IMG/VR virus record: IMGVR_UViG_3300029305_005988
Location: 59,096-123,095 of that record
DNA length: 64,000 nt
Source of the DNA: a virus
Lineage: Duplodnaviria; Heunggongvirae; Uroviricota; Caudoviricetes
Direction: 5' to 3' (one strand)
A program made the position numbers and the translations under genes. Position 1 is the stretch's first letter. Each line of letters begins with the position of its first letter. This document shows positions 18,071 to 42,319 of this stretch, one piece after another. The notes below the pieces were generated by a model. It was not told the DNA's origin, searched no databases, and saw nothing but the letters and a program-made list of their open reading frames with translations.

Positions 18071-18835
18071 ATGACTGATGTAATGGCAAGAGTGCAAAAG
18101 CATTATGATAAAGCTGTAGAGCATTATGGTGAAGAGAATATCTTTGGTGTATTCTGTTATGGCTCTTGGAACTATGGCACCAACACTCCTGATTCTGATG
18201 TAGATACTAAATGTATTCTCATTCCTAACCTTTACCATTTAGCGCTTAAGCCTTATGAAGTAAAGCACTTGCATGTAGACGACGAAATTTGTGAGTGTAT
18301 GCCTATTATGCATATGGTTGAGAACTGGAAGAAGCAGAATATTAACTTCCTTGAAATCTTATTTACTCCTTATTGCATTTTGAATGAGGATTACGCCGAT
18401 CTTTGGTGCGGACATCGCGAGGCTGAATGGGAGCATCCTATGACTTTTGGTATGGCAGAAAAAGTTGCGCGCTATGATGTTAAGAAAGCGGTTATGTCTA
18501 TGAGCGGCCAGGCGCTGCATACTATCAGACAAGATCCGACGGATTTAAAGAAGATTATGAACGGTGCGCGCATTATGCGGTCATTGGCGATTTTGACCTC
18601 TAACCCTACAGCATCTTATATTGATGTTATTCGCGCAACTCCCAAGATTGCAGGTATGCGCACAGGAGAGACTAAAATTAAAGATGGTTTCATTGAGGAA
18701 ATGATTTCTTATTTTGATTATATGATGACGCATGCTGATGACTTTGCGCATCTTAGTAGTAACAAACACGAGGTAGACGAATTTCTTAATCAATTTGTAC
18801 TTCAAATGATTAGACAAAGAATTGCTCTTGATTGA
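18071..18835 (+). CDS. Pol-beta-superfamily nucleotidyltransferase (minimal NTase + helical domain)
   Basis: GSWNYGTNTPDSDVD (G[SG]x9-13DxD); sits at head of tRNA array. Confidence 0.5.
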   Translation: MTDVMARVQKHYDKAVEHYGEENIFGVFCYGSWNYGTNTPDSDVDTKCILIPNLYHLALKPYEVKHLHVDDEICECMPIMHMVENWKKQNINFLEILFTPYCILNEDYADLWCGHREAEWEHPMTFGMAEKVARYDVKKAVMSMSGQALHTIRQDPTDLKKIMNGARIMRSLAILTSNPTASYIDVIRATPKIAGMRTGETKIKDGFIEEMISYFDYMMTHADDFAHLSSNKHEVDEFLNQFVLQMIRQRIALD

Positions 18836-19558: not shown

Positions 19559-19635
19559 GGGCCACTAGCTCAGTTGGTCAGAGCATCCGGCTCATAACCG
19601 GACGGTCCAAGGTTCAAGTCCTTGGTGGCCCACCA
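19559..19635 (+). tRNA. tRNA-Met(CAT) elongator-type (or Ile-lysidine)
   Basis: loop ctcataa; G1-C72; CCA. Confidence 0.6.
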
Positions 19636-20417: not shown

Positions 20418-20425
20418 TTCATATA

Positions 20426-20498
20426 GGGAATTAGTTTAACAGTAGAATGACTGTCTCCAAAACAGTAGGCTGCGGGGCAGCACCGTAATTCCCTGCCA
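20426..20498 (+). ncRNA. degenerate tRNA-like (Trp CCA-type anticodon arm, no canonical T-arm)
   Basis: acceptor gggaatt/aattccc 7/7, stem actgt/acagt, loop ctccaaa; T-region replaced by ctgcggggcag. Confidence 0.3.
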
Positions 20499-20603
20499 GT
20501 TCCTTTAAAGATCTTCATAGTGACCATCGGCGCATTTATTGATTTTATAAAAAAATTATGATATAATAAATTGTAAAATGAAAGAGGGAAAGAGAGGGAA
20601 AAA

Positions 20604-20822
20604 ATGAAAGCACAAATTCGACTTGATACCATGTCTGATGTACATCGCTTTGTTAATATTGCAACAAAGCAAAAGGGTAGTGTCTATATCACTGATGACA
20701 ATGGTTTAAAGGTTAGCGCCAAATCATTGCTCGGTGCGCTTTATGCTCTTGAGTTTGATGAACTCTGGTGTGAAGCAGAAAATGATATTTATACTGCTAT
20801 TGCTGATTTCGTTATTCTTTAA
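20604..20822 (+). CDS. HPr-like phosphocarrier domain protein (72 aa)
   Basis: DVHRF (His15-like) and NGLKVSAKSLLGALYALEF vs HPr GLHTRPA / NGKSASAKSLFKLQTLG. Confidence 0.55.
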   Translation: MKAQIRLDTMSDVHRFVNIATKQKGSVYITDDNGLKVSAKSLLGALYALEFDELWCEAENDIYTAIADFVIL

Positions 20823-20889
20823 TTGACTTTTCTAAAAAATTATGTTATAATAAAGTACAAAATAAAACAAACCGCAAAGGAGAAAAGTT

Positions 20890-21024: not shown

Positions 21025-21412
21025 AAACTTCATTGATTTTTAATAAAAATTATGATATAATATATGTGTAAGATAAAGGAAACGGGAGTTGTCAGTCCCC
21101 ATAAGCGCCTTTCTTTCGCGCAACTGACTTGGATATGCGGCTGATGGTTCATGAGCCTAAAGCTGTACTTCCTCAGTGAGAGGCGTTTTTTGAGAGTTTT
21201 AGCCGAGATTAAAATTCTACCTTGAGAGTTTTGGAGAAACTCTTCGTTTCAGACAAAAGAGGTATCAATCACTTAGAGTCTTTGTTCGTATAAGTTAAAA
21301 AACATGATAGATTGGTCGCGGCGAGAGTGGCGAGCCTTATGCGGTGTAACGAGCAGAAGCGCAAGAAGATCTTCGCGCCTTGGGAGGGCGGTTATAATAC
21401 TCCCTTTATGGG

Positions 21413-21486
21413 ACCTTAGCTCAGATGGTAGAGCACTTCTTTGATGGCGAAGGTGGCAACGGTTCGAGTCCGTTAAGTTCCTCATA
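21413..21486 (+). tRNA. tRNA-Ile(GAT)-like with imperfect stems (possible pseudo-tRNA)
   Basis: T-arm aacgg/ttcgagt/ccgtt; loop ttgatgg with 31:39 mismatch; acceptor 6/7. Confidence 0.3.
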
Positions 21487-26199: not shown

Positions 26200-26275
26200 G
26201 CTGTGATAATTCAATTGGGAGAAGAGCCGGCGTCAAGCAGGCTAGTTGTGGGTTCGAGTCCCACTCACAGGTCCA
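26200..26275 (+). tRNA. tRNA with UCA-centred anticodon loop (cgTCAag, G33) - opal-reading/Sec-like candidate or mis-parse
   Basis: acceptor 6/7 (G1-G72 mismatch); T-arm gtggg/ttcgagt/cccac; CCA; anticodon stem gccgg/caggc with one mismatch. Confidence 0.3.
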
Positions 26276-29460: not shown

Positions 29461-29539
29461 ATAAGTAATCGAAAGTTCATTGATAATTGCATAAGAAAAT
29501 ATATAAGACATCTATAAAAGAAGGAGTTGAATTTATTAT

Positions 29540-30176
29540 GGGTTTTATTTATAAAGTTACAAATAAAGTCAATGGTAAAGTTTATATTGGAAAAACTTTA
29601 GACTCTTCTATAGAGGAGCGCTTTAAAGAACATATTAAAGAAGCTAAAGTAAAACAATATAATCGACCTTTTCATCTGGCTTTAAATAAGTATGGAGCAG
29701 AAAATTTCATAATTGAAGAAATTGAGCAAATTCCTGCAAATGAATTAAGCAAAAGAGAAATATATTGGATTTCTTTTTATCATTCTTATATTCACGATCC
29801 AGTTTCAAACGGATATAATGCCACTAAAGGTGGCGAAGGATCGCTAGAATATGACTATGATAAAGTTATTGTAGAGTATCATAAAACACAAAGTATTACT
29901 CAAACAGCCAATAATTTAAAATGTTCTATATCTACAGTACAGAGAGCTATTCGAGAATATAATGTTCCCGTATATAAACAGCGCGCCTGTGGAGTTAAAA
30001 TTATTGGCTATAATGATATGGAAGAATTAACTTTTGATTCTATCCGACAAGCTGCTGAATTTTTATCAAAACGATTAAATAAAGATATGCAGACAATACG
30101 AAAGCGAATTACTTCTATTATTAATCATAAACCTAATCAAAAAGGGTATGGTTATTACTGGAAAGAACAAGAATAA
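29540..30176 (+). CDS. GIY-YIG homing endonuclease (no in-frame TAG)
   Basis: MGFIYKVTNKVNGKVYIGKT...ERFKEH...YWISFYHS...GYNATKGG; ORF track 29487-30176. Confidence 0.7.
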
Positions 30177-30228: not shown

Positions 30229-30919
30229 AGTGGCCGATTGCACTCGCCTTGTTCGTAAATTTAAGACTTCCTATAAAGGAGGTTGATATAATGAATGAGA
30301 CAAAGATTAAAGGTTTAACCACTGAGCTTCAATGTCAATTATTCTTTACTCAATTGGGTTATAATGTTAGTATCCCGTTAGGAGAAGATTGTAGATATGA
30401 TATGATAGTAGATATTAATGGCATACTCTTGCGAGTTCAAGTAAAACACGCAACTGTTGCAGAAAATGGTATTACTATTTCTACTCGTTCTACTCAATCT
30501 AACACTTCAGGATCAAAAAGTTTAACCTATAATAAGGAACAAATTGATTATTTTGCAACTTTTTATAATAACCAGTGTTATTTAATTAAAGTTGAAGAAT
30601 GTTCAACTCAAAAAACTTTAGCTTTTACTAAAATTCAACAAATGCAGAACTTCATTGATGATTTTTTGGCTGAAAAAGAAATTCAAAGAATCTTAAATGG
30701 GGAAGATGCTATAGAAGATACTGTAATAGCAAATGTATATCAATATGATTTGCGTGGCAACTTAATAGGAGCCTATTCAAGTGCCGTTGCAGCAGCTGAA
30801 AGTTTAGGAGATCGCTCTAAAAATTCTCATATTACCAAATGCCTTAATGGGCATAGGCAAACAGCATATGGGTATAAATGGAGCAGGACACTATTGAAGT
30901 CTTAAACATTATGATCAAA
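30229..30919 (+). mobile_element. intervening element in tRNA anticodon loop encoding nuclease ORF
   Basis: no G at predicted 3' splice position, so a group I assignment is doubtful. Confidence 0.35.
30291..30905 (+). CDS. putative PD-(D/E)XK-fold homing endonuclease with C-terminal DNA-binding tail (GYKW), paralog of 27962-28381
   Basis: conserved block with paralog; RBS ataaaggaggttgatataatg. Confidence 0.45.
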   Translation: MNETKIKGLTTELQCQLFFTQLGYNVSIPLGEDCRYDMIVDINGILLRVQVKHATVAENGITISTRSTQSNTSGSKSLTYNKEQIDYFATFYNNQCYLIKVEECSTQKTLAFTKIQQMQNFIDDFLAEKEIQRILNGEDAIEDTVIANVYQYDLRGNLIGAYSSAVAAAESLGDRSKNSHITKCLNGHRQTAYGYKWSRTLLKS

Positions 30920-42220: not shown

Positions 42221-42319
42221 TGGGGGGTCGCTTAATGGTCATAGCAGCGGTCTCTAAAACCGCCAGAGCCTACGGGTCTGCTCCGTAGTATGTGGGTTCG
42301 AGTCCCACCCCCCCAGCCA
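42221..42319 (+). tRNA. amber-suppressor tRNA(CUA), Gln-type identity, with 28-nt extra (variable) arm
   Basis: stem gcggt/accgc loop ctCTAaa; U1:A72, G73, tc-gct D-arm as in tRNA-Gln; variable arm ctacgg-gtctgct-ccgtag hairpin; T-arm gtggg/ttcgagt/cccac; CCA. Confidence 0.6.

Follow-up and report, generated by a model that had tools for sequence, protein, structure and literature searches.

A predicted histidine-less HPr-superfamily protein encoded in the tRNA array of a large gut/rumen phage

The 64,000-nucleotide stretch of DNA analyzed here (the window) is part of a large uncultivated gut/rumen phage, and it encodes a 72-aa protein, here called mini-HPr, that is very probably a His-less member of the HPr superfamily acting in a capacity other than phosphocarrier. 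In Firmicutes, carbon catabolite control centers on HPr and Crh. The open reading frame of mini-HPr is a genuine, widely conserved gene, and we describe below its setting in the phage genome, the profile and structural evidence that ties it to HPr, the residues that it has lost and kept, and the roles that it may play in an infected cell.

The gene and its transcriptional setting

The mini-HPr gene begins with ATG, and its sequence is as quoted in the first-pass annotation, which had placed it in a tRNA region. This placement was borne out, given that genes for tRNA-Met, tRNA-Trp(CCA), and tRNA-Ile flank the open reading frame (Table 1). The tRNA-Trp gene lies immediately upstream, which places the mini-HPr gene within the phage tRNA array. 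This tRNA was recognized via Rfam RF00005, for which the gathering score is 29; ARAGORN made no call for it, and its T-arm is unusual. The ARAGORN calls and the Rfam tRNA-Trp together bring the window to 25 tRNAs. At 26200-26275 (+) and 42221-42319 (+), ARAGORN called a "tRNA-SeC" whose anticodon is UCA (opal-suppressor type) and a tRNA whose anticodon has four bases (UAAA). The UCA and UAAA tRNAs could allow late genes to use stop-codon recoding or frameshift suppression; when TGA, TAG, or TAA was reassigned in a crude comparison of ORF lengths in this window, no clear gain resulted.

Table 1. Coordinates of the mini-HPr gene, its signals and key codons, and neighboring or related features in the window
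Feature	Position	Strand	Basis or remark
Mini-HPr CDS, 72 aa + stop; His-less mini-HPr-fold protein	20604..20822	+	ORF read from the sequence
RBS GAGAGGG, 5 nt before the mini-HPr ATG	20592..20598	+	Read directly from the sequence
Promoter TTGATT-17-TATAAT with TG-extended -10, sigma70/sigmaA type	20539..20567	+	Promoter scan; perfect copy of the 29-nt phage cassette
Next cassette copy, TTGACT-17-TATAAT	20823..20851	+	Starts at base 1 after the mini-HPr stop; serves the 44-aa ORF at 20890-21024
Codon of Thr9, the residue just before helix alpha1	20628..20630	+	96% conserved
Codon of His14, the candidate phospho-His of the first-pass annotation	20643..20645	+	Not conserved; pairs with HPr residue 20
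Codons K40-S41-L42-L43-G44, counterpart of HPr K45-S46-I47-M48-G49	20721..20735	+	Alignments and conservation
tRNA-Trp (anticodon CCA), directly upstream of the mini-HPr gene	20425..20495	+	Rfam RF00005, 44.8 bits, E = 6e-8
tRNA-Met	19559-19635		ARAGORN
tRNA-Ile	21410-21483		ARAGORN
Sigma70-family factor, full length (regions 1.2, 2, 3, and 4)	36738-37619	+	Perfect cassette copy at 36663

The promoter of the mini-HPr gene, which is close to the sigma70/sigmaA consensus, belongs to a repeated 29-nt cassette, TTGAYTTTnnnAAAAAnTTATGnTATAAT, which consists of a -35 element, an A-rich spacer, and an extended -10 element. The cassette is present in 19 copies in the window, all on the + strand and at sites spanning 2653-57621, against an expectation of 0 from shuffled sequences. 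It precedes many small ORFs, a sigma-factor gene, and replication genes, and perfect copies stand before the mini-HPr gene, the next small ORF, and the sigma-factor gene at 36738. A cassette copy directly follows the mini-HPr stop codon, which gives the mini-HPr gene the look of a small, separate transcription unit; no terminator-like site was found on the + strand between the mini-HPr promoter and that next copy. Given that the cassette is strong and of host type, and that the phage carries its own sigma factor for other genes, mini-HPr is probably made early in infection by the host RNA polymerase. The encoded protein is small (~8 kDa) and acidic (pI 4.65), and HPr and Crh are likewise acidic.

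The window also encodes topoisomerase II subunits, an NAD-ligase, a DnaB-like helicase, a primase, RecJ, and Sak4. An apparent RNA/tRNA repair module at 37636-39942 (+) consists of consecutive genes for an RNA ligase (phrog_968), an AAA_33 kinase, and a calcineurin-like phosphoesterase, and the tRNA array opens with a weak nucleotidyltransferase/RlaP-like protein (18071-18835, +). Homing-endonuclease-type genes are located in or beside the tRNA region at 29487-30176, 30249-30905, and 35083-35787 (all +), with GIY-YIG plus NUMOD1, PD-(D/E)XK plus NUMOD1, and HNH domains. An 829-aa protein (32561-35050, +) matches PF11978, the shoulder domain of the Major Vault Protein, at E = 2e-24, has a weak vault repeat, and lacks a PHROG match; such a shoulder domain is unusual in a phage.

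Homology to HPr and the residues lost and kept

The first-pass annotation had described a likeness to HPr along the full length of the protein, to be checked by a PF00381 search and a fold prediction. With the single query sequence, this likeness did not emerge: Pfam returned no match even at E ≤ 10, NCBIfam returned no match, PHROGs and PDB gave only chance-level matches (E 0.1-1.5), none of them to HPr, and a tblastn search of 50,697 GenBank phage records found no match. At the level of profiles and folds, however, the likeness went beyond chance, and the negative single-sequence PF00381 result was overturned by the profile-profile and fold evidence. Relatives of the query at E ≤ 0.01 comprised 128 clusters, nearly all of 70-76 aa and none annotated; an exhaustive HMMER search raised the family to 520 clusters at 50% identity, and a profile of divergent members raised it to ~1,053 clusters at 90% identity. 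When a family profile (A1) was compared to all PDB sequences, five B. subtilis Crh entries came out on top, followed by HPr chains (E = 1e-4). A more diverse profile (A2) reached E = 1.4e-5, with HPr or Crh accounting for 23 of the 24 matches and Crh being the best. Alignment of A2 via hhalign to six HPr/Crh sequences, of which the Crh one was confirmed over residues 4-50 by the PDB alignment, gave a probability of 94.2% and E = 1.2e-7 over 70 aligned columns, end to end. Weak matches to PF00381 were observed in 17 of 45 family members (best E = 4.7e-4), and no other family recurred in more than 6 members. The whole family is annotated as "hypothetical" because every member scores below the PF00381 gathering threshold of 23 bits (examples, 12.4-12.5 bits). 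Scans of whole family alignments against PHROGs and PADLOC yielded no family and no known defence-system match, and NCBIfam returned nothing relevant for the bacterial subgroup.

The fold prediction also arrived at HPr. AlphaFold2 modeled A1 with a pLDDT of 90.8 and a pTM of 0.79, and in a Foldseek search of PDB with this model, the first 38 matches were all HPr, Crh, or NPr. The predicted elements are b1(2-5), a1(10-22), b2(27-31), b3(36-38), a2(39-48), and b4(54-58), which amounts to the open-faced beta-sandwich of HPr with a beta-alpha-beta-beta-alpha-beta topology, compared to beta-alpha-beta-beta-alpha-beta-alpha in canonical HPr. A second model, of a bacterial homolog, had the same secondary structure as the phage protein. 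The long helix alpha3 is absent from both models, and residues 61-72 contain a single 3-residue helical turn. Given the profile matches to HPr and Crh and the agreeing fold, homology of mini-HPr to the HPr superfamily is well supported. We also considered that the open reading frame might not be a real gene and that its likeness to HPr might have arisen by chance, as the empty single-sequence searches would allow. This explanation is already refuted, and its probability is practically nil: the homologs fill more than 1,000 clusters and are conserved in length, the predicted fold is confident, the ORF has its own promoter and RBS, and the profile and structure matches agree on one family.

Residue conservation was counted over 258 family members with identities to the query below 60%. 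S41 ranks first (99%), followed by T9 (96%), G44 (93%), L7 and F16 (91% each), and V37 and K40 (90% each). The segment NGLKVSAKSLLGAL had been assigned to the Ser46 region of HPr, and this assignment held up, given that HMMER, MAFFT, and hhalign all set K40-S41 opposite K45-S46. The Lys45-Ser46-[IL]-[ML]-Gly49 motif at the start of alpha2 is thus found as K40-S41-L-L-G44, and the hydrophobic face of alpha2 is retained as well, with L42, L43, and [ML]46 in the places of I47, M48, and M51, along with Lys45.

The first-pass annotation had read "DVHRF" as the loop of the phospho-acceptor His15 and had proposed that a phage HPr might rewire either PTS sugar uptake or catabolite control through CcpA/HPr-Ser-P. 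All three aligners instead placed H14 opposite HPr residue 20, inside helix alpha1, and F16 opposite residue 22. Position 14 is variable in the family (N 41%, Q 9%, K 9%, and A 7%), with His outside the four commonest residues. The G-[IL]-H-[AT]-R-P loop of HPr meets a 3-residue gap in each of the HMMER, MAFFT, and hhalign alignments, and in hhalign the gap corresponds exactly to His15-Ala16-Arg17. What is left of the loop has the consensus L-D-T-x-x-D, which lacks His, and positions 9-13 contain no conserved Arg or Lys. D12, conserved at 80%, stands in the Arg17/Pro18 neighborhood where HPr has Pro18. The sequence aligners place T9 opposite Ser/Thr12. Judging from the +6 register that runs through helix alpha1 (D12/P18 and F16/L22) and from the position of T9 just before this helix, T9 would occupy the structural slot of HPr His15.

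Given that no His is conserved, that the His15/Arg17 loop is deleted, and that H14 varies, phosphotransfer from Enzyme I and a role as a PTS carrier are excluded on the grounds of sequence, and both PEP/Enzyme I-dependent phosphorylation and transfer to EIIA are predicted to be negative. A functional phage HPr with His14 in the role of phospho-His15 is favored only by the occurrence of a His close to the expected position in the query itself. Most relatives replace that residue with N, Q, K, A, or others, three independent alignments set it within helix alpha1, and the loop that should hold the phospho-acceptor is three residues shorter and has no conserved His. We regard such a phosphocarrier as exceedingly improbable and already refuted on conservation grounds.

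Distribution in phages and in Clostridia

The identical protein was found on contigs of up to 129 kb and also in JGI/ENA metagenome contigs, where it has the same small-gene neighbors. Searches for related loci, performed with alignments A1 and A3, located family members at no fewer than 53 loci in IMG/VR, on viral contigs of 4-233 kb. No neighbor gene was conserved across the phage clades represented by these 53 viral loci, which we counted in favor of a stand-alone action on the host. Viral members of 86-90 aa had been candidates for canonical HPr with His15 and were rejected as such, given that they are from the same His-less family and have an insertion of ~14 residues after alpha2. This insertion subfamily (loci L039, L040, L041, L045, L057, and L059-L062; match at 5001-~5270) has the consensus ...SLILSQRAQExREHTAHDVDW... 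immediately behind the Ser-motif helix. At its G44 position, Cys frequently replaces Gly, and it too lacks His15. On one 224-kb contig (locus L009, 8993-9262), the small genes near the mini-HPr copy encode a Tad8-family protein, a cREC_REC domain protein, and thymidine kinase, and this block likely consists of small early or counter-defence genes.

Family members are also encoded on bacterial chromosomes. A 79-aa bacterial member that is 55% identical to the query is preceded by nusA-ylxR-L7Ae-infB and a NUDIX gene. When one genome per species was scanned with patterns tuned to this NUDIX-linked bacterial clade, 64 loci emerged, and every one belonged to a MAG of human or ruminant gut origin classified as Oscillospiraceae, Ruminococcus, Eubacteriales, or Clostridia. 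The NUDIX gene precedes the mini-HPr homolog by ~220 bp on the same strand in 56 of 63 bacterial loci, and infB is found further upstream of it in 55 of 63. The gene order in the bacterial loci (L063-L119; L005, 1-5240) is nusA, ylxR, L7Ae, infB, NUDIX, and mini-HPr, with a variable downstream side. A 79-aa ORF between infB and the NUDIX gene in L005 was considered as a family member and rejected as unrelated. In a rough neighbor-joining tree from an alignment of only 74 columns, the 56 NUDIX-linked copies clustered tightly as a single clade (mean distance, 0.18) within a far more diverse viral radiation (mean distance, 0.58). Mini-HPr is present in Oscillospiraceae as a vertically conserved chromosomal gene, with many uncultured carriers.

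The NUDIX neighbor of the chromosomal copies is closest to Ap4A/Ap6A hydrolases. In B. subtilis, the Nudix gene yvcI/nahA lies in the crh operon. YvcI is a NuDiX hydrolase (PMC7584652). We considered a parallel between these two arrangements, which is weak because of the Ap4A/Ap6A affinity of the clostridial protein, and we did not rely on it. The possibility that the phage carries a partner of this bacterial NUDIX type was rejected as well, given that tblastn at E ≤ 1 found no NUDIX gene in the window or in the 53 viral loci.

These distributions bear on the host. A Firmicute had been supposed in the first-pass annotation, and this is plausible: the cellular homologs were found only in Oscillospiraceae, Ruminococcus, and Clostridia MAGs, and the phage promoters are sigma-A-like with an extended -10. 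Taken together, the phage and chromosomal distribution supports a Firmicute host of the class Clostridia, plausibly an Oscillospiraceae-like one.

Possible roles and comparison with known systems

We hypothesize, tentatively and at slightly less than an even chance for the reading as a whole, that mini-HPr has a Crh-like regulatory function. Mini-HPr is a reduced form of HPr that keeps the partner-binding face (helix alpha1/alpha2), and according to this hypothesis it would, like Crh, regulate by binding on its own, with the Ser41 face as its key element. Ser41 could be phosphorylated by the host HprK/P, and its face would engage, or else titrate away, one of the host proteins that HPr/Crh bind, such as HprK/P, CcpA, or another HPr-binding protein. 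The outcome would be a shift in carbon and energy regulation in the Clostridia (Oscillospiraceae-like) host during infection. We infer the early timing, the phosphorylation of Ser41, the identity of the partner, and the physiological effect, and caution is in order, given that the function is deduced from the fold and two conserved residues alone.

Several features of the protein weigh on this Crh-like hypothesis. HPr Arg17 and His15 are reportedly implicated in CcpA signaling, going by the title of a 2007 study by Horstmann et al. cited in PMC4591507, and the apparent loss of the Arg17 position weakens the reading through HPr-Ser-P and CcpA. The presence of D12 where HPr has Pro18 means that the electrostatics of the binding face differ from those of HPr and Crh. 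The chromosomal copies adjoin an Ap4A-hydrolase-like NUDIX gene and not PTS genes, which counts against a Crh-like function, as do the sub-threshold PF00381 scores of all members and the lack of linkage to a PTS, hprK, or ccpA gene among the copies seen. The conservation of Ser41 may also be purely structural, this being the N-terminal residue of a helix. In V. cholerae HPr, Ser46 is conserved even though HprK/P is absent (PMC10287919), so conservation alone is no proof of phosphorylation.

The same observations could be accommodated by an HPr-fold scaffold with a function apart from the PTS and carbon catabolite control, in which Ser41 and Thr9 would be conserved only as the N-termini of two helices. 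Such a scaffold would bind another target, for example, in nucleotide or dinucleoside-polyphosphate signaling or in host defence or takeover. The linkage of chromosomal copies to a gene of the Ap4A/Ap6A-hydrolase type downstream of infB is in line with this possibility, as are the V. cholerae precedent, the loss of the His15/Arg17 loop and helix alpha3, and the occurrence of copies in other phages among small early genes that include Tad8-family and nucleotide-metabolism genes. No PTS gene, ptsI and EII genes included, was seen beside any copy. We nevertheless consider a scaffold unrelated to the PTS rather unlikely. A Ser conserved at 99% within K-S-[LI]-L-G, in the register of HPr, exceeds the usual demand of helix capping, and Thr, Asp, and Asn, which cap equally well, almost never occur at position 41. 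The best sequence relative is specifically Crh, which is a regulatory paralog, the NUDIX gene is absent from the window and the 53 viral loci, and known defence-system families gave no match.

The retained binding face would also suit a dominant-negative decoy that fills the HPr site of Enzyme I or HprK/P without passing on a signal and that, during infection, would block either PTS uptake or the phosphorylation of HPr-Ser. For such binding, L42, L43, and [ML]46 of the hydrophobic alpha2 face are in place, as is Lys45, any complex with Enzyme I would be a dead end for lack of a phospho-acceptor His, and a small, acidic, promoter-proximal gene is typical of a phage inhibitor. However, a vertically conserved chromosomal gene in Oscillospiraceae is hard to square with a purely inhibitory role, and the loss of Arg17 along with the altered loop would weaken binding to EI-type surfaces. 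We therefore view a decoy as quite improbable.

Returning to the Crh-like hypothesis, its boldest extension would make mini-HPr a third class of HPr paralogs, after HPr/NPr/FPr and Crh, that has been stripped to the Ser46 face. Members of this class would reside mainly in large gut and rumen phages, would have been domesticated (or donated) once in Oscillospiraceae, and would act as phospho-Ser (perhaps phospho-Thr9) mimics that take over control of the HprK/P-CcpA type in Clostridia. We think this unlikely; if it were true, the hijacking of catabolite repression would be a common strategy of gut phages. If the Crh-like hypothesis itself is true, the hundreds of clusters in gut and rumen phages and the chromosomal copies in Oscillospiraceae would offer a direct, testable handle on how phages reprogram the carbon metabolism of their hosts in the gut and would fill a gap in the set of PTS-related regulators of Clostridia. 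For annotation, the gain is that more than 1,000 clusters of "hypothetical protein" without Pfam, PHROG, or NCBIfam assignments can be described as HPr-superfamily non-phosphocarriers.

A description of a phage or His-less mini-HPr family was not found in the literature searched. Phage HPr-like genes have been labeled automatically before and not studied. Two "Siphoviridae sp." proteins from the gut virome in BFVD, A0A8S5PSI8 (81 aa) and A0A8S5S213 (84 aa), have the same predicted fold as mini-HPr (Foldseek TM, 0.81 and 0.79; probability, 1.0). Their names, "Catabolite control protein A" and "PTS HPr component phosphorylation site," respectively, are automatic transfers. The two share only 19-23% identity with the query and exceed its length by 9-12 residues. 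The 3H domain of NiaR, which is a ligand-binding domain inside a larger repressor, had a lower structural score, an identity of 8-10%, and no sequence-profile signal.

Relative to canonical HPr (ptsH, PF00381), mini-HPr lacks His15, scores below the family threshold, and is shorter at both the active-site loop and the C-terminus. The closest known system is Crh of B. subtilis, which, like mini-HPr, is an HPr paralog that has no phosphotransfer His and has Lys45-Ser46 together with the hydrophobic alpha2 face; an HPr homolog without His15 and with Ser46 retained is of the Crh type, and mini-HPr has both features. Crh, which is small and acidic, stands alone and acts solely through protein-protein interaction; once HPrK/P has phosphorylated it at Ser46, it occupies the HPr site of CcpA (PMC4591507). 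The two differ in how the His was lost, which was by deletion in mini-HPr and by substitution with Gln15 in Crh. Crh has 85 aa, a full loop with Arg17 and Pro18 present, and helix alpha3, whereas mini-HPr has 72 aa, a loop shorter by 3 residues, and Asp at the position of Pro18. Phosphorylation and CcpA binding have been shown for Crh, while mini-HPr is known here from its sequence and predicted fold. Finally, Crh is known from Bacilli and the mini-HPr family from gut and rumen phages and Oscillospiraceae. Within the HPr superfamily, the most fitting description of mini-HPr is thus that of a new, reduced variant, neither a canonical HPr nor a strict Crh.
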